Of a DNA stretch of 38,673 bases, positions 4,606-14,730 are shown piece after piece. The DNA is from a virus. The notes beneath the pieces were generated by a model. That model made no database searches. It saw only the letters and a list, made by a program, of their open reading frames with translations, and was not told the origin of the DNA. The stretch is from the UHGV virus genome UHGV-0106931. One strand, written 5' to 3'. The position numbers were made by a program, and so were the translations under genes. Position 1 is the stretch's first letter; each line of letters starts with the position of its first letter.

Positions 4606-5115
4606 ATGTTTGATTACCAAGTTTCCAAACATCCACATTTTGATGAAGCCTGTCGTGCATTCGCACTGCGCCACAATCTGGTGCAACTGGCAGAACGTGC
4701 AGGCATGAATGTGCAGATTCTGCGGAACAAGCTGAACCCAGCTCAACCTCATTTATTAACCGCACCAGAAATCTGGTTGCTTACTGATCTGACTGAAGAT
4801 TCAACGTTGGTAGATGGTTTTCTGGCACAGATTCATTGTCTGCCATGTGTACCGATTAATGAGGTAGCAAAAGAGAAACTGCCGCATTACGTCATGAGCG
4901 CAACTGCAGAGATCGGGCGTGTTGCAGCAGGTGCGGTATCTGGTGATGTAAAAACTAGTGCCGGTCGTCGTGATGCTATCAGCAGCATTAACTCTGTAAC
5001 ACGACTGATGGCGCTGGCTGCTGTTTCATTGCAGGCCCGTTTACAGGCTAATCCTGCGATGGCGAGTGCAGTTGATACCGTGACTGGCCTCGGTGCTTCA
5101 TTCGGTTTGCTGTGA
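4606..5115 (+). CDS. cII: 186 CII-like lysogeny-establishment regulator
   Basis: [25 protein letters not shown]...[25 protein letters not shown] closely resembles 186 CII as recalled; start set at MFDYQ, upstream ATG at 4546 possible. Confidence 0.72.
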
Positions 5116-5122
5116 GGTGCTT

Positions 5123-5323
5123 ATGCTGACGAAAGAACCATCATTTGCATCGCTGCTGGTAAAACAAAGCCCGGCAATGCACTACGGTCACGGCTGGATC
5201 ACGGGTGAGGATGGAAAACGCTGGCATCCATGTCATTCACAAGATGAATTGCTGGCAGAACTATCTACGAAAAAACGGGGGAACAAATGGCTATTGAAGG
5301 CGCTGCGGCGACTGTTCCATTAA
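5123..5323 (+). CDS. Hypothetical early protein (about 66 aa)
   Basis: ORF in early operon; start uncertain (ATG 5123, GTG 5093 or 5117). Confidence 0.35.
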   Translation: MLTKEPSFASLLVKQSPAMHYGHGWITGEDGKRWHPCHSQDELLAELSTKKRGNKWLLKALRRLFH

Positions 5324-5628
5324 GACCCGGTGAACGCCTGAATGGACTTAATCATATTGCGGAGTTAAGGGCGAAAGTTTTTGGTTTGAATATTGAGTCA
5401 GAGCTTGAGCGGTTTATTAAAGATATGCGTGATCCACGGGATATCAATAATGAACAAAATAAACGGGCACTGGCTGCCATATTCTTTATGGCAAAAATTC
5501 CAGCTGAACGTCATAGTATCAGCATTAATGAGCTGACCACTGACGAAAAGCGGGAGTTGATTAAAGCAATGAATCATTTTCGTGCAGTGGTGAGCTTATT
5601 TCCCAGACGGCTAACCATGCCGAATTAA
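5287..5628 (+). CDS. Hypothetical early protein (113 aa)
   Basis: ATG with upstream GGGGG; overlaps the preceding ORF by 37 nt in another frame. Confidence 0.4.
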   Translation: MAIEGAAATVPLRPGERLNGLNHIAELRAKVFGLNIESELERFIKDMRDPRDINNEQNKRALAAIFFMAKIPAERHSISINELTTDEKRELIKAMNHFRAVVSLFPRRLTMPN

Positions 5629-5695
5629 CCAACTAATGAAATTAATGGCGTAAACCCGCAGGGCATCCCTTTATCTAAATTCAGGAGAATTGATT

Positions 5696-5929
5696 ATGCG
5701 TAATATTGAAACCCTCACGACTAAAACCGGACCGGATGACGCAGGGCTTAATATTTTACTGACAGAGGCTCGTCTGGAAGAACGCCGGGCAAGGGCTGAA
5801 GCAATGGCAGCTCGCCTTGATAGCCTGGCGTGCCATATCACATCCCGCCAGCTAAACCACGTCGAAGCGGCAGAACTGCTGCGTGTAACTGCTGAAGCAA
5901 TCCAGAACGAAGCGCAGGAGATCCACTAA
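5696..5929 (+). CDS. Hypothetical early protein (77 aa)
   Basis: AGGAGA RBS 7 nt upstream of ATG 5696; stop overlaps next start (TAATG). Confidence 0.5.
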   Translation: MRNIETLTTKTGPDDAGLNILLTEARLEERRARAEAMAARLDSLACHITSRQLNHVEAAELLRVTAEAIQNEAQEIH

Positions 5930-6156
5930 TGGCTGATGCAATGGATCTCGTACAGCAGCGCGTTGAAGAAGAACGCCAGCGCCATATTCGTGCTGCCCGT
6001 GCCAAAACACCGGGCGTGTCTCGCGTGCTTTGTATTGAATGTGAAGCGCCAATTCCGCCAGCACGACGCCGCGCCATTCCGGGAGTGCAGCTTTGCATTA
6101 CCTGCCAGGAAATCGCAGAGCTGAAGGGCAAACATTACAACGGAGGTGCTGTATGA
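5929..6156 (+). CDS. TraR/DksA-family C4 zinc-finger protein
   Basis: [25 protein letters not shown] is a Cys-x2-Cys...Cys-x2-Cys zinc ribbon typical of phage TraR-like proteins. Confidence 0.6.
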
Positions 6157-6455
6157 CAAGGGCAGTGCGTATCCATCAATTAAAAATTGCACCTAAGTAT
6201 TTCAACGCTGTGGTTGCAGGTCAAAAGACGGCTGAACTTCGTAAAGACGATCGTGGCTATAAAGTTGGTGATGTTCTTTCTCTTTGCGAATGGAAGCATG
6301 GCGTATTTACGGGTAGGGAATGGGCCGCTGTTATCTCTCATGTGCTTCCGGTTAATGACGTCATGGCAGTTTCAGAACAATGGGTGATGCTATCAATTCG
6401 TCCATTAACCCCATTAGAAGCTTTAGGATATGTTATTGCAGGAGGTGCTGTATGA
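6153..6455 (+). CDS. Small PUA/ASCH-like (DUF3850-type) protein
   Basis: [42 protein letters not shown] resembles ASCH/DUF3850 phage proteins (from memory); ATGA-coupled to neighbours. Confidence 0.5.
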
Positions 6456-10129: not shown

Positions 10130-10429
10130 TTAGTTGTTACCCAAAGAGCCGGCCATGGCTGCATATTTAATTTCTTCGCTGGGTATTTCAGGATGTAGTT
10201 GAATTTGCCTGATGATATAGCCAGGAACTTCTTCACTCCACAGTTTCGCCGCGTCCTTACAGACCTTATACGCGAAGTCTCTATTCTCAAAGGCATAGGA
10301 TTTTCCGTATGCATATTGCTGACAGGCATGAACATAAGCTCCGAAGTCGCCGTCTTTATCTGGCAAAGCACATCCAGCTAAGGCTATGATGATTGCTACT
10401 AACGTAAAGGAGAAAGTTATACGTTTCAT
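10130..10429 (-). CDS. Small secreted lipoprotein (99 aa)
   Basis: Signal peptide with lipobox (LVAIIIALAGC); AT-rich moron region. Confidence 0.6.
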   Translation of the reverse strand: MKRITFSFTLVAIIIALAGCALPDKDGDFGAYVHACQQYAYGKSYAFENRDFAYKVCKDAAKLWSEEVPGYIIRQIQLHPEIPSEEIKYAAMAGSLGNN

Positions 10430-10537: not shown

Positions 10538-11344
10538 TTATTTAGAAAGGTACTTATCTCTAAGTTGATTCAGTCTGTCAGCATCGCGTTCTGAAAACTC
10601 GGCGTCACCATAGATCGATTTCCCATCTGCGTCTTCAAGGCCAATGACTGTGACGGTAAATATAGCATCAGCCGGAACTTTAAGTTTTCCCCAATCAGAG
10701 TATCTATTAGGGGCTAATTTCCAGTTGGCTTTCTCACCTGGTTCCAGACCTCCAGAAATTTTATAGTTGAAGACGTCAGAGAACCAAGGGACGCTTCTTC
10801 CTGGGCTGGCAATAACTCCTTTGAAGAATACTCTGGCAACCGCTTTGTCTGTTCCGTTTTCAACGCTAATATCCAGAATTGGCTGATCATTGCCGTAATC
10901 CTCTTTCTGGAAATAAAAACGGGAACGTTCGACCTTGAAGGCTTTCATTTTTTCCGCAGCCTGTGTTGCAGAGGTTTGTTTGGCTTCCAGTTCTTTTATT
11001 TCTTGCAGAGCCTGTTCTTTCTCTCTCTTCTCACGCTCAAGGCGAATAGTTTGTGCGTAATTTATAACCTCATCACCAGTTTTACCTTCCAACGCTGACT
11101 TAATTTTTGTTTCGTAGACGTCCCCAGAAGACGTTCCAGCCTGCATTAGCTCTCTCATGTTGATTTGGCTAAAGGCAACGACTTTAACTGCATCATCAAA
11201 CTGAGCTTTTTTATCTGCAGGTAAGGACTCTCTTACTTTTTGAATGGACTCTTTCATCGACTGATCGCTTGATGCATCGATCTTCGGTTTGTCACAAGCA
11301 GTAAGCAGCAGAGCAAAAGCAATTACGCCAGTTAATTTCTTCAT
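10538..11344 (-). CDS. Lipoprotein (268 aa) with central charged coiled-coil-like segment
   Basis: MKKLTGVIAFALLLTAC lipobox signal peptide; start taken at the internal ATG (11344) that begins the signal peptide. Confidence 0.6.
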   Translation of the reverse strand: MKKLTGVIAFALLLTACDKPKIDASSDQSMKESIQKVRESLPADKKAQFDDAVKVVAFSQINMRELMQAGTSSGDVYETKIKSALEGKTGDEVINYAQTIRLEREKREKEQALQEIKELEAKQTSATQAAEKMKAFKVERSRFYFQKEDYGNDQPILDISVENGTDKAVARVFFKGVIASPGRSVPWFSDVFNYKISGGLEPGEKANWKLAPNRYSDWGKLKVPADAIFTVTVIGLEDADGKSIYGDAEFSERDADRLNQLRDKYLSK

Positions 11345-11540
11345 ATCCCTATCCCAATCGTAAAAAAACAAGGCTAATCCTAACAGGATTAGCGGGCATG
11401 ACAAACTCATAGCCATATAGGTGTGCTGTATAAATTAGCGGGATGAGAAAGCCTGCACAGACCCTCATGTTGAAACTTGATTTTAGCTCAAAAGAGCTGA
11501 CACTAAATAACTGCGCGGAATAATGCTCCACTTTCGGTTA

Positions 11541-11872: not shown

Positions 11873-11891
11873 AGGCGTGGCGGGGATACGA
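11873..11891. other. Probable cos site (cohesive-end region)
   Basis: GGCGTGGCGGGGATACGAG followed by CGCGCGCT resembles the P2/186 cohesive-end sequence as recalled (GGCGAGGCGGGGAAAGCAC TGCGCGCT); exact cut positions not determinable here. Confidence 0.5.
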
Positions 11892-11980: not shown

Positions 11981-12676
11981 ATGGCTTGCAGTAGGGGAAA
12001 AGCTTCTCCAAACGCTAATACAGTTAGACGGCTTTTTGCCAGCTCAGGTGGCTTTTGCCAAAATCCACAATGCTTGCAACCTTTGTTTGTTGATGCTGGC
12101 GACAAAAATATAACAATTGGAGAACTTGCTCACATTTTTAGTGCCATTGATAATGGACCTAGAACCAATGCTGATCTAACTGATGAGCAGAGAGGTCATT
12201 TTGACAACATTATTCTTCTATGTGCTAATTGCCATACGACAATTGATAAGGCAGAGGAACATTTTACTGATGAAATTATCCGTTCTTGGAAAAACGGCCA
12301 TATTGATAAAATAAATGCAACCTTTGGTGTTAAAACATATGACAATCGAGAATCTGTTAGACAGGAGTTAGAAAAATACTTCAGAGAAAACAATACCATT
12401 TTTGTAACATATGGACCAACCCAAGAGAACAGCGTTGACCCTGAAAATCCAAATGCAGAAGTATGGTTAAGAAAAGTACAATCTCATATCTTACCCAACA
12501 ATAGAAAAGTACAGCGACTGGTTGAACAAAACTATCACCTCATGAGTGAAGATGAGAAGAATGTTTTTTCAAAGCTTTGTGTTCATATAGATGACTTTGA
12601 ATCAAAACATTTGGGCTTAACCGATGCTAATGGTAGTAGGTTTCCAGAAGCTGCATCTGAACTATTTATAGGATGA
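11981..12676 (+). CDS. HNH-motif nuclease-like protein (231 aa), cassette gene 1
   Basis: C-x2-C (CQNPQC), conserved His (ELAHIF), Asn, and CANCH arranged as in HNH endonucleases; AT-rich; stop overlaps next start. Confidence 0.65.
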   Translation: MACSRGKASPNANTVRRLFASSGGFCQNPQCLQPLFVDAGDKNITIGELAHIFSAIDNGPRTNADLTDEQRGHFDNIILLCANCHTTIDKAEEHFTDEIIRSWKNGHIDKINATFGVKTYDNRESVRQELEKYFRENNTIFVTYGPTQENSVDPENPNAEVWLRKVQSHILPNNRKVQRLVEQNYHLMSEDEKNVFSKLCVHIDDFESKHLGLTDANGSRFPEAASELFIG

Positions 12677-13332
12677 ATCCAATGAGCATAAATGCGAGTG
12701 AAGGCTATATTTCATGGATGGCAGGAAAATTACAAGAAAATAAATGTGTCGAAAATATAGAGGTGATAGGTGATGGTACTTTAGTGATTAATACTACACA
12801 GGGTGACACCTATTTGATCGGGGCAATCAATACTGGCCGGATAACATGTCCTGAGATAAATGAATACCTAGACAATAAAAAAATTGATTTTCTATCAGTC
12901 AAGGGAGGTGTTGAATTTATCTCTGGTGATGCAATGAGATTACTAGAACAAAAGAAAATAGGAGTGGGTTCATTTGGGCATATTGCATCTTCTTTAAGAG
13001 CTAATAATCCGCTTGAGCATCTTGATAAAGAGCATTTGTTTATAAATAGAGTGTTCAATCAACATTCACATGTAAGCTCTGTAGAGCGAGAAACCAACAA
13101 AAAATATAGACTTAAAAGACGTGGCTTGGCGGACTTAGTTATTATCGCTGCGAATGATTATGATATGACAGCGGGTTCTGTAAGAGATGCGATAGGGTTG
13201 CATGGCAATTGTGATGTTGTTTTTTCCTCCAATCCTAATGGACGATTGACGACTCAGGCAAAAGAGGCTGCTCAAAGTATCGGGGTGGAGCTTTACAAGT
13301 TGGGTGATTTATTACGAAGAATTTCACGGTAG
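12673..13332 (+). CDS. Hypothetical protein (219 aa), cassette gene 2
   Basis: ATGA-coupled to gene 1; no domain confidently recognised; a weak Rx6H (RANNPLEH) is noted only as a possibility. Confidence 0.6.
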   Translation: MNPMSINASEGYISWMAGKLQENKCVENIEVIGDGTLVINTTQGDTYLIGAINTGRITCPEINEYLDNKKIDFLSVKGGVEFISGDAMRLLEQKKIGVGSFGHIASSLRANNPLEHLDKEHLFINRVFNQHSHVSSVERETNKKYRLKRRGLADLVIIAANDYDMTAGSVRDAIGLHGNCDVVFSSNPNGRLTTQAKEAAQSIGVELYKLGDLLRRISR

Positions 13333-13649
13333 TGAATTTTAAACATACGATTGAATCGATCTGTGATGTTATTATCCATCATAGTTTATATATGGTGGAT
13401 GTATATGTATTTGGGTCAGCATTAAAGAGTTTTTGCGATGCAAATGATATTGATATGCTTGTGATAGGTGATTGTGTCGATGGTTTATTATTGAAGCGAA
13501 AGCTGCGGGAGCTTGATTTATTTGTTCCTGTTCATATTATTACAATGACGCATTCAGAAGAGTATGAACTGGGATTTATTAAGTCTGTTGGCACTTCTCT
13601 GCTTGTTGTTGATAAAAGCGTTAAGATCAATTTTGTATGTGGTATATAA
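13332..13649 (+). CDS. Minimal nucleotidyltransferase-like protein (about 105 aa), cassette gene 3
   Basis: FGS-x9-DID (YVFGSALKSFCDANDIDMLV) fits the Pol-beta-type NTase motif; GTG start overlapping the upstream stop (TAGTG), alternative ATG at 13392. Confidence 0.5.
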   Translation: MNFKHTIESICDVIIHHSLYMVDVYVFGSALKSFCDANDIDMLVIGDCVDGLLLKRKLRELDLFVPVHIITMTHSEEYELGFIKSVGTSLLVVDKSVKINFVCGI

Positions 13650-13660
13650 CGGGTGGCAAT

Positions 13661-13698
13661 AAGCCTCTTCTTTGGATGGGTTTCTAAAGAAGAGGCTT
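13661..13698. terminator. Bidirectional hairpin between the cassette and portal gene Q
   Basis: 13 bp perfect stem AAGCCTCTTCTTT / AAAGAAGAGGCTT with 12 nt loop. Confidence 0.5.
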
Positions 13699-13701
13699 TA
13701 A

Positions 13702-14730
13702 TTACAAGGAGTAATCTTGGAATTTTATTACGTCATCATGTAGCCAATTGTTCACCTCTCTAATTCGTTGTTGAAGAGGCTTTAATTCATTACGTACAAA
13801 AACCGTGGATGCCTTCTCCACATCCCCAAACCCGCCAACATTATTCGGCATGATACCCATCATTTGTGGAGGCACGCGGTGTGCCGCCATCATGTCATCC
13901 CGGCTCACGTTCTTGATGTTCAGAAATTCATCCTTTGCCGCGACTTCTGACAACGGGATAATCTGAAGACCATCCTTTTTGCCGTTAGGTGAGTACATAA
14001 ACAGGTTGCGGAAGTTGCCTGGACCTTTGGCGCTTTTCATTGCGTTGCGGAGGTTGTTCACATCCTCCTGGTTCTGCGCAGCATCGGTCATGTACATGAT
14101 GAAGCCAGCATGACTGCCGTTAATGTAATACTTTCGGCGGAACAGCGTGGCGGACTCGTTGAGCAGGGCTGACGGAATGGCAGAAAGATAACCGGGCAGG
14201 CCGTAGATCTCCTGGTTGATGTCCGGTTCCATCAGATGAAAGATGCTGCCTTTCGTGAACTGATACGGCTGGGTTGTCATACCGTATTGCACAAACCAGT
14301 AGGTATCCAGGTCTAATCCGCGTCGGGTGTATTTTGCCAGCGCAGGTTCAAGGGCGATCACTTCACCGAAGCGGTTCGTGCGTTTCTCCAGATAGGCGTT
14401 GCCAAATACCAGATAGTCCTGCACAAAACGCGAAAAAGCCTGCTGGCTGAGCAGAGGATGAGGGATATAGGTACTGGTCAGAATGTTGCACTTTACTGCA
14501 ATCGGGGAACTGTGATGCACGGCGGCGCGGAAGGTGCGAGCCAGACCGTCGAAACTCACTGGCGGCTCATACCAGCGATCTGTCTGTACGCATTGCACAT
14601 AGTCCAGCAGTTCGCGGCGGTCAAGTACAGGAACGGGATCACCGAAGCTGAATGCTTCGGCTGAAGTCTGGCTTTTATGCTGGATCTGATTCGTCGCCGC
14701 AGTGCGGTTTTTCTTACTCTTTCCCATCAA
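13702..14730 (-). CDS. Q: Portal protein gpQ
   Basis: 342 aa in P2 Q position, overlapping the terminase gene; sequence consistent with P2 Q as recalled. Confidence 0.88.
   Translation of the reverse strand: MMGKSKKNRTAATNQIQHKSQTSAEAFSFGDPVPVLDRRELLDYVQCVQTDRWYEPPVSFDGLARTFRAAVHHSSPIAVKCNILTSTYIPHPLLSQQAFSRFVQDYLVFGNAYLEKRTNRFGEVIALEPALAKYTRRGLDLDTYWFVQYGMTTQPYQFTKGSIFHLMEPDINQEIYGLPGYLSAIPSALLNESATLFRRKYYINGSHAGFIMYMTDAAQNQEDVNNLRNAMKSAKGPGNFRNLFMYSPNGKKDGLQIIPLSEVAAKDEFLNIKNVSRDDMMAAHRVPPQMMGIMPNNVGGFGDVEKASTVFVRNELKPLQQRIREVNNWLHDDVIKFQDYSL

Follow-up and report, generated by a model that had tools for sequence, protein, structure and literature searches.

A mobile three-gene cassette pairs a Cap5/SPARHA-type HNH protein with a minimal nucleotidyltransferase in a P2-like prophage defence hotspot

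Prophages of the P2 type carry interchangeable cargo genes, and the A-to-Q interval of P2-like phages is a published anti-phage hotspot in which the cassettes tested are anti-phage (PMC9122126), as the initial annotation of the DNA studied here had stated. In the genome UHGV-0106931 (38,673 nucleotides (nt), analysed over its whole length and referred to below as the window), we describe a three-gene cassette from this hotspot for which the databases and literature that we searched contain no counterpart among named or tested defence systems. With moderate confidence, we regard it as a self-contained, mobile, three-component anti-phage or abortive-infection moron of the cos–Q slot, in which an HNH nuclease would be gated by a minimal nucleotidyltransferase (MNT) and by a third protein with a degenerate restriction-endonuclease-like (REase) fold. 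We infer this function from genomic context and domain logic.

An AT-rich cassette between cos and portal gene Q

The cassette lies in a P2-like Escherichia coli prophage, flanked by a cos-like site and portal gene Q, and comprises three tightly packed, co-directional genes on the plus strand, in the arrangement first described: gene 1 (11981–12676; 231 amino acids (aa)), an HNH nuclease with a helical C-terminal domain (CTD); gene 2 (12673–13332; 219 aa, or 216 aa if counted from 12682), with two REase-like units; and gene 3 (13332–13649; 105 aa, GTG start), a minimal nucleotidyltransferase of the Polbeta superfamily. The low GC content noted at the outset is pronounced, at 36.8% for the cassette (gene 1, 0.372; gene 2, 0.380; gene 3, 0.333), whereas the flanking genes have 51–57% (portal gene Q, 0.507; gene A, 0.533; terminase, 0.571) and the whole window 0.506. 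In E. coli ATCC 8739, a locus of 99.9% identity carries RefSeq annotations for replication endonuclease A, the cassette, portal, terminase, GPO scaffold and P2 capsid in that order, confirming the P2-like context; RefSeq describes the cassette proteins themselves only as hypothetical. A scan for sigma-70-like promoters directly upstream of gene 1 returned nothing convincing, and the window contains no tRNA genes.

Genes 2 and 3 meet, as proposed, at a TAGTG junction, which we checked in the sequence. The ATGA overlap at 12673 that the initial annotation read as the start of gene 2 is possible, but ATG 12682 is the more likely start because it is the RefSeq call, 95% of the family begin at Met4 and the Shine–Dalgarno spacing is better. 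Whichever start applies, the gap between genes 1 and 2 is at most 5 nt.

On the left, the Q-side cargo slot is bounded by the cos-like site GGCGTGGCGGGGATACGAG (11873–11891), which lies outside the module. The canonical P2 cos sequence, as queried, had no match within 3 mismatches, and the cos-like site differs from it by more than 3; the site nevertheless has exactly the cos sequence found in the P2-like prophage clone from E. coli E1114 (Table S2A of Rousset et al.). On the right, a hairpin (13661–13698) separates gene 3 from the convergent portal gene Q (13702–14730, minus strand). It has a perfect 16-bp stem (dG −27.3 kcal/mol, z = −5.9; none of 200 shuffles folds equally well) and is likely to end transcription of the cassette, of the late operon or of both. 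The hairpin is as strong as had been claimed, but its reading as a bidirectional terminator is only plausible, because the consensus terminator scan did not pick it up and the T-tract on either strand is weak.

Domain composition of the three proteins

Characterised HNH relatives of the Cap5/SPARHA type are silent until sensor-driven oligomerisation builds composite active sites, after which they degrade DNA indiscriminately, and the Cap5-type HNH is normally under the control of a nucleotide second messenger. By sequence and structure comparison, residues ~10–115 of gene 1 form an HNH domain of this type, with a zinc finger (C26/C31/C81/C84) and predicted catalytic residues H51/N76/H85; the HNH motif spotted in the initial annotation (C26..C31, H51, N76 and C81-x2-C84-H85) is invariant in 48 gene 1 homologues. 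This comparison places gene 1 in the Cap5/SPARHA clade of immune effector DNases, which oligomerisation switches on (PMC12738770; see also PMC8568899). We predict that gene 1 is the effector of the module. Homology to the Cap5/SPARHA effectors ends at about residue 115–125, PADLOC HNH-SAVED models align to residues ~5–125 only, and none of the 48 gene 1 family members has a SAVED match in Pfam. The CTD (~120–231) is instead helical and family-specific: it matches only generic helical bundles and carries its own motifs (YGP144-146, NPE153-155, W162, PNN172-174, H202 and H210), with Tyr144 conserved in at least 90% of the family.

Gene 3 is, judging from its motifs and profile matches, a minimal Polbeta nucleotidyltransferase that appears catalytically intact. 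The G28-S29-x9-D39-I-D41 signature, recognized from the start, is invariant in 77 homologues, and F27-G28-S29, D39, D41 and E76 are each invariant or nearly so; the third catalytic position (68) is His in the window copy and Asp in about half of the family. Compared with MNTs in the PDB, the family profile finds AF0614 (5e-6), HI0073 (1e-4) and MntA (2e-3). Pfam Polbeta is matched by 39 of 46 family members and NTP_transf_2 by 37 of 46, the window copy alone falling under the Pfam gathering cut-offs.

Gene 2 contains two homologous REase-like α/β units, an internal duplication in which the core fold is present. The earlier statement that it has no nameable domain holds for both the protein and its wider family (289 representative clusters), neither of which matches a Pfam or PADLOC family. 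Foldseek against the PDB returned nothing significant, and sequence comparison likewise; the ligand-activated nucleases Can2, Card1 and VC1899 are also among the proteins that the fold search returns. Among 132 sequences, conservation stays below 80% at every acidic or lysine position and the D...(D/E)xK triad is not conserved. Because this catalytic triad is not conserved, we rejected the reading of gene 2 as an active nuclease. The conserved set consists of W15, G99, F123, Q130, H131, V134, R149, Y163, R171, N187 and P188. Its core is Q130-H131, Y163 and N187-P188, with His131 and Tyr163 near-invariant (Y163 at 99%), and three-gene forms additionally keep R149 and R171, which are lost in fusion proteins. 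Gene 2 is predicted to be an adaptor, a sensor or a modification target.

A mobile operon across about 10 phyla

Linkage of the three genes is obligate. Of 80 genome loci, spread over about 10 phyla, 77 have the trio as a conserved operon and the remaining three lie at contig ends. In 8 genomes all three parts are fused into one protein of ~465 aa; Halomonas halodenitrificans DSM 735 has such a natural fusion, at 4992–6389 of its locus. Some lineages have gene 2 reduced to its C-terminal half. The conserved operon, these half-length forms and the three-part fusions are new here. No methyltransferase or other self-protection gene and no membrane protein belongs to the conserved unit.

The module is also horizontally mobile. 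It is carried by prophages, defence islands and the P2 hotspot, and by a few plasmids and megaplasmids, in places beside other toxin–antitoxin genes such as HipA; across the ~10 phyla, it is found in chromosomal islands without packaging genes nearby. Defence-island neighbours are seen at some loci, counted as raw neighbour occurrence, and many of the genes flanking module loci are housekeeping genes. Of 5,426 complete E. coli genomes, 14 carry the cassette; the P2-type segment next to it has matches in 1,263 genomes. Swapping of cassettes in this slot, which the initial annotation had suggested looking for, is directly visible: near-identical prophages fill the same slot with other cassettes, and ours alternates with a 3HP-like system on near-identical backbones. 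Among 50,697 deposited phage genomes, megablast and tblastn found no homologues of the cassette.

Proposed mechanism and alternatives

The three proteins probably assemble into a single complex. In the mechanism that we favour, gene 1 would be the effector DNase, with a private helical domain and two obligate partners where its characterised relatives have SAVED or APAZ/Argonaute sensors. On the model of type VII toxin–antitoxin systems, the MNT would use an NTP to nucleotidylylate a conserved tyrosine, and may do so by AMPylation; Tyr163 of gene 2, together with the invariant His131, is the preferred target and Tyr144 of gene 1 the alternative. The modification would keep the HNH nuclease off, and infection would perturb the modified state, releasing the nuclease to assemble and cut DNA; these are the target, direction and trigger of the reaction that we infer. 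We counted against this explanation His68 of gene 3, the negative promoter scan, the housekeeping flanks and the lack of homologues in phage genomes, and against the MNT–tyrosine step the absence of HEPN and the generic helical-bundle matches of the gene 1 CTD.

The same partners could instead communicate through a nucleotide signal. The MNT would make a small nucleotide or short oligonucleotide, constitutively or on infection, that gene 2 senses to switch the HNH nuclease on or off. Such an arrangement can be likened to CBASS or to Hailong, in which the nucleotidyltransferase HalB makes inhibitory oligo-dA, and gene 2 would functionally replace SAVED. The second-messenger control normal for Cap5-type HNH domains, the return of Can2, Card1 and VC1899 by the gene 2 fold search, the invariant nucleotidyltransferase core and a weak match (8e-5) of 1 of 46 gene 3 relatives to the PADLOC oligonucleotide-cyclase model are all consistent with it. 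We nevertheless consider it unlikely: gene 3 is an MNT-class protein of ~100 aa and not a CD-NTase, the match of its family to HalB is not significant (E 0.74), Pfam and PADLOC searches detected no SAVED, CARF or other known sensor domain in the module, and fusion of nucleotidyltransferase and ‘sensor’ in a single chain makes a diffusible signal less necessary. Quite improbable, in our view, is a plain toxin–antitoxin or addiction module, with HNH (or gene 2) as toxin and MNT as antitoxin, that stabilises the prophage or island and does not exclude phages. MNTs are well known as antitoxins, the best PDB matches include MntA and HI0073, and the operon is tightly coupled, mobile and found on a few plasmids and megaplasmids and next to toxin–antitoxin genes; yet the cassettes tested from its slot are anti-phage (PMC9122126), it alternates there with a 3HP-like defence system, it has defence-island neighbours, and its effector clade is so far known solely from immune systems. 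Toxin–antitoxin and defence roles are not mutually exclusive.

The other two readings concern nucleic-acid processing. If gene 2 were a DNA-specificity or end-recognition subunit for the HNH nuclease, with the nucleotidyltransferase modifying nucleic acid (for example, by 3′ tailing) to mark self or non-self, the system would be restriction-like. The conserved unit, however, has no methyltransferase or other self-protection gene; gene 2 conserves a His/Tyr pair and not a basic DNA-binding surface, R149 and R171 being lost in the fusions; and, to our knowledge, enzymes of MNT size lack a nucleic-acid-binding domain. We regard this reading as very unlikely. A nuclease that benefits the phage itself is suggested by the position of the cassette next to cos and the portal and terminase genes: HNH proteins of the HK97 gp74 type are encoded beside terminase and portal genes and help terminase, and gene 1 might similarly aid terminase at cos or in packaging, or be a homing endonuclease. 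This is strongly disfavoured and close to negligible, given the rarity of the cassette (14 of 5,426 E. coli genomes, as opposed to 1,263 for the adjoining P2-type segment), the other cassettes held by the slot in near-identical prophages, the islands of ~10 phyla in which the trio occurs without packaging genes, the lack of homologues in deposited phage genomes, the Cap5-type HNH and a GC content foreign to the backbone. We rejected a packaging-HNH role on distribution.

Returning to the gated-nuclease mechanism that we favour, a bolder form of it would be a new class of immune switch in which the MNT covalently nucleotidylylates a His/Tyr site on gene 2 or on the gene 1 CTD, licensing or restraining HNH assembly. 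We put this forward tentatively, as possible but doubtful. If true, type VII toxin–antitoxin chemistry would have been rewired onto a DNA-degrading immune effector, conserved over a range that takes in both E. coli prophages and cyanobacteria, with a natural single-chain version besides. An anti-phage role, if confirmed, would make the cassette a widespread compact (~1.7 kb) defence system that PADLOC v2.0.0 misses and RefSeq labels as hypothetical proteins only, extend the controllers of Cap5/SPARHA HNH nucleases beyond cyclic-nucleotide sensors and Argonautes, give the orphan family of gene 2 a function and offer a test of MNT-type nucleotidylylation as a general gate on immune nucleases. 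The natural three-in-one fusions lend themselves unusually well to structural and biochemical work, and for the hotspot that houses the E. coli copy, cloning and phage-panel assays are already established.

Comparison with known systems

The initial annotation could not match the combination to a named system, and none in PADLOC v2.0.0 or in the set tested by Rousset et al. corresponds to the trio. Rousset et al. catalogued the cassette proteins as ‘hypothetical’; the cassette is not among their tested systems, and N-terminal peptides of its proteins are absent from their supplementary tables of tested systems. The ‘hp+hp+hp’ system (3HP), which protects against P1 (Rousset et al. 2022; PMC9122126), is also a three-gene hypothetical cassette in the cos–Q slot, but it consists of unrelated E1114 proteins of 333, ~360 and 227 aa; we rejected an identity of the two because sequences and sizes differ. 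No description of an HNH module with an MNT or other nucleotidyltransferase was found in the literature searched, including by accession. A BREX survey and the NILS69 HNH study were considered as prior descriptions and rejected, as the proteins are unrelated.

Several systems share one component with the module. Protein A of PDC-M68 is the best PADLOC match of gene 1 (E 2e-29), but the match covers profile positions 8–110 of 253, that is, the HNH domain only; genes 2 and 3 and their wider families do not match any PDC-M68 model, and neither a mention nor the composition of PDC-M68 was found in the literature searched. The Shedu SduA model likewise matches only the N-terminal HNH of gene 1 (positions 19–125 of 326), with no DUF4263 match in Pfam. 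For Hailong, the non-significant HalB match is accompanied by the absence of a HalA-type membrane protein from the conserved unit, and, unlike HK97 gp74-like packaging HNH proteins, the cassette is not a conserved part of the packaging module, being swapped on the same backbone. Gene 2 shares the PD-(D/E)xK or Mrr-like fold of AF1548, NucS/EndoMS and the Can2/Card1 nuclease domains, without a conserved D...(D/E)xK triad.

Two further groups resemble the module. The gene 1 HNH domain belongs, by sequence and structure, to the same clade as those of Cap5 (HNH-SAVED) and SPARHA HNH-APAZ, with intact catalytic and zinc sites. The module differs from CBASS and SPARHA in having no SAVED, APAZ, CD-NTase or Argonaute, and the gene 1 CTD and partners are unrelated; no cGAS/DncV-like CD-NTase occurs in the operon, gene 3 matching only Polbeta and NTP_transf_2 in Pfam. 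The initial annotation had also likened the cassette to HEPN/MNT and AbiE modules, a comparison that stands as an analogy. AbiE combines a DUF1814-type AbiEii nucleotidyltransferase (~250–300 aa) with an AbiEi winged helix–turn–helix antitoxin, and the module has neither; no cassette protein matches the PADLOC AbiE models, gene 3 being too small and of the MNT class. In type VII HEPN–MNT systems (HepT–MntA and HI0074–HI0073), a tightly packed operon likewise combines an MNT of ~100 aa with a nuclease, and the gene 3 family has its best solved relatives in MntA, HI0073 and AF0614. There, however, the nuclease is a HEPN RNase and not an HNH DNase (the cassette proteins show neither a detectable four-helix HEPN domain nor an R-x4-6-H motif), and the module has a third, obligatory REase-fold component and a gene order with the nuclease first and the MNT last. 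The MntA antitoxin AMPylates a tyrosine of HepT; by analogy, Y163 of gene 2 and Y144 of gene 1 are candidate acceptor tyrosines for the MNT described here.

A compact operon in a P2 phage defence hotspot

ORF calling recovered all three + strand genes of the cassette where the initial annotation had placed them: gene 1 (11981–12676; 231 amino acids (aa)), gene 2 (12673–13332; 219 aa) and gene 3 (13332–13649; 105 aa, GTG start). The G+C content of the cassette (36.8%) is, as had been noted, lower than that of portal gene Q (50.7%), the terminase gene (57.1%) and replication gene A (53.3%). Either start of gene 2 leaves the genes closely spaced, but the proposed ATGA overlap at 12673 is less likely: RefSeq annotates gene 2 from ATG 12682, 5 nt past the gene 1 stop, and 95% of homologues begin at Met4, which makes this start the more probable one. 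A strong hairpin (13661–13698; stem of 16 bp without mismatch, −27.3 kcal/mol, z = −5.9) separates gene 3 from the convergent portal gene; the bidirectional terminator role suggested for it earlier is a prediction. The cos-like sequence at 11873–11891 agrees exactly with the cos region of a second P2-like prophage, which Rousset et al. cloned; a search there with an approximate canonical P2 cos sequence gave no match within 3 mismatches.

The window equals the sequence in Escherichia coli strain LR-29-1, and 14 of 5,426 complete E. coli genomes carry the 1.8-kb segment at 99.8% identity or more. In ATCC 8739, CI, CII, Fil, Dam, a replication endonuclease and DinI are annotated upstream of three ‘hypothetical proteins’, followed by the portal, terminase, GPO scaffold and P2 capsid of a P2-like prophage. 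This gpA–gpQ interval is the hotspot that holds old/tin and other anti-phage systems (Rousset et al., PMC9122126), which bears out the initial placement of the cassette. The same catalogue enters the three proteins only as ‘hypothetical’ (PMC9122126), and they are absent from the systems cloned by Rousset et al., according to their tables. Identity with the validated ‘hp+hp+hp’ (3HP) trio was rejected, as 3HP consists of different proteins.

A survey for cassette swapping found other trios in the cos–Q slot of prophages with the same backbone and A-side cargo (that is, between gene A and cos). E. coli ZH48 (L097, 6795–9638) carries a diverged 3HP homologue there (37% and 24% identity to hp1 and hp3), which directly shows the cassette being exchanged for a validated defence system. 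E. coli C 236-04A (L098, 6853–9071) carries an unrelated, unannotated trio of 368, 139 and 221 aa.

Another E. coli assembly (L006, 5001–6631; Logan SRR34304847) has, in the same P2 slot, a diverged second version of all three genes, with gene 1 69% identical, next to a DUF4145 (HEPN-clan) gene; the module has thus diversified within the species. The A-side of the window (10538–11416 and 10130–10429, both − strand; about 42% GC) encodes a DUF6694-family lipoprotein (Pfam, 4e-22) and a second small lipoprotein-like ORF. This segment is full-length in 20 complete E. coli genomes, with an IS1 insertion in some, and assorts independently of the Q-side cassette.

The trio is conserved as one unit across phyla

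Using gene 1 as the only bait, we retrieved 80 loci from one-genome-per-species bacterial collections, spanning Proteobacteria, Bacteroidota, Actinomycetota, Cyanobacteria, Chloroflexota, Planctomycetota, Gemmatimonadota, Acidobacteriota, Omnitrophota and Leptospira. When six-frame ORFs were scanned with HMMs, 77 of the 80 had a gene 2 homologue directly 3′ of gene 1 and then a gene 3 homologue; the other three run into contig edges. The distance matrices of the three proteins are strongly correlated (r 0.78–0.88), with the effector more conserved (mean identity 45%) than its partners (27%). Three architectures recur: the canonical trio of about 231, 215 and 100 aa; a form in which gene 2 is cut down to its C-terminal unit (about 130 aa); and, in eight genomes, a single polypeptide of about 465 aa that joins gene 1, the gene 2 C-terminal unit and the nucleotidyltransferase (NTase). 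There are also two partial fusions. The fusions retain the HNH catalytic and zinc set, the NTase set and gene 2 H131 and Y163, and are without gene 2 R149 and R171.

In all eight triple fusions (L073, L074, L075, L079–L082 and L084; ORF starts about 4971–4998), gene 1 E48 is replaced by N together with K90 by E, positions that are invariant in 48 aligned homologues; from this pattern, they may be a covarying pair at an HNH–HNH interface. A Lentzea kentuckyensis locus (L078, 1630–5645) may be an expanded variant, having immediately upstream a 917-aa ORF with a second gene 1-like HNH region (aa 36–127) and, under naive first-start ORF calling, an apparent N-terminal extension of about 190 aa on its gene 1 homologue. 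The short gene 2 forms correspond to the C-terminal half of the family profile, apart from one in a Desulfocapsa MAG (L066, 1560–1949), which aligns to the N-terminal half.

The neighbourhoods are varied. The Pseudomonas copy is in a prophage and adjoins an S24 repressor, the Chromobacterium copy is flanked by a Lamassu system and an Mrr-nSTAND3 gene, and an Alteromonas copy sits in a variable island with HipA. At least 12 of the 135 nearest flanking ORFs match defence models at E ≤ 1e-10 (LmuB/LmuC, SduA, AbiEii, ShosA, mad3, RmrA, and PDC and HEC candidates), 4 are integrases and many others are housekeeping genes; as raw counts, these figures support a defence role qualitatively. The module is also carried by seven IMG/VR contigs and a few plasmids, and nucleotide and translated searches of deposited phage genomes did not find it.

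A predicted HNH effector with an orphan partner and a minimal nucleotidyltransferase

The HNH assignment of gene 1 was confirmed by profile and structure-database matches. Among PADLOC models, residues ~5–125 match the candidate PDC-M68A best (2e-29), then CBASS HNH-SAVED effectors (1e-22), and they also match the HNH head present in some Shedu proteins. The best PDB sequence matches are the SPARHA short-Argonaute HNH effector (9om4, 1.7e-9; PMC12738770) and Cap5 (5e-7). All 48 homologues keep C26, C31, H51, N76, C81, C84 and H85. In Cap5 and SPARHA, oligomerization activates the HNH domain, which then cuts DNA non-specifically (PMC12738770). Residues ~120–231 make up a helical bundle whose own motifs (YGP, NPE, W, PNN and H..D.E..H) are strongly conserved. 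For this part we found no Pfam family or informative structural neighbour, and the full-length 231-aa architecture is kept at 45–50% identity across phyla.

Gene 2 was initially described as having no nameable domain, and neither the window protein nor 80 diverse relatives had a sequence match in Pfam, NCBIfam, PADLOC or the PDB. An exhaustive profile search gathered 289 representative clusters, nearly all of them stand-alone proteins of 205–225 aa. The confident AF2 model (pLDDT 92.5) has two αβ3αβ units, and the two halves are homologous to each other (HHalign 98.8%). The D...(D/E)xK triad is not conserved in the family; W15, G99, Q130-H131, R149, Y163 (99%), R171 and N187-P188 are near-invariant, and the His/Tyr pair is the sole universally retained feature.

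The identification of gene 3 as a minimal NTase is secure at the family level. The window protein alone is sub-threshold for Pfam Polbeta/NTP_transf_2; 39 of 46 family members match Polbeta, and the family profile finds the minimal NTases AF0614, HI0073 and 2rff and the type VII antitoxin MntA. Across 77 sequences, F-G-S, D39 and D41 are invariant and E76 is near-invariant. At position 68, the third catalytic position, the window has His, as do 34 of 77 relatives, and another 40 have Asp. By its conserved core, gene 3 looks like an active enzyme of this class.

A putative immune or abortive-infection module

The findings are most simply read as a mobile immune or abortive-infection module of three components, in which a Cap5/SPARHA-type HNH DNase (gene 1) would be the effector layer, and a catalytically degenerate REase-fold protein (gene 2) and an active minimal NTase (gene 3) would form the control layer; the steps beyond domain identity and linkage we infer. 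How the module is distributed contradicts a function in packaging or homing that would serve the prophage, and the genes did not prove to be conserved P2-family packaging genes.

The best-known minimal NTases of this length act as antitoxins, AMPylating a tyrosine on the partner toxin. Because gene 2 universally keeps its His/Tyr pair, we favour, by analogy, a nucleotidylylation switch that would control the module. The main alternative is that the NTase synthesizes a ligand, as in CBASS or Hailong, and a pure addiction role is also conceivable.

Comparison with known systems

The combination matches no named system in PADLOC v2.0.0, Pfam, NCBIfam, PHROGs, the PDB or a literature collection of 8 million papers, where it is neither described nor tested, a very recent naming being possible. 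The module shares its HNH head with PDC-M68A, with CBASS Cap5, but has no CD-NTase or SAVED domain, and with SPARHA, but has no Argonaute or APAZ; it shares its NTase class with HEPN–MNT, but has no HEPN protein, and it is unrelated to 3HP. By their defining features, it thus falls outside CBASS Cap5, SPARHA and HEPN–MNT. We therefore regard it as a candidate defence system that combines a known effector type, a known enzyme class and an orphan family, and that merits attention as a widespread, compact and readily testable module with natural single-chain forms.
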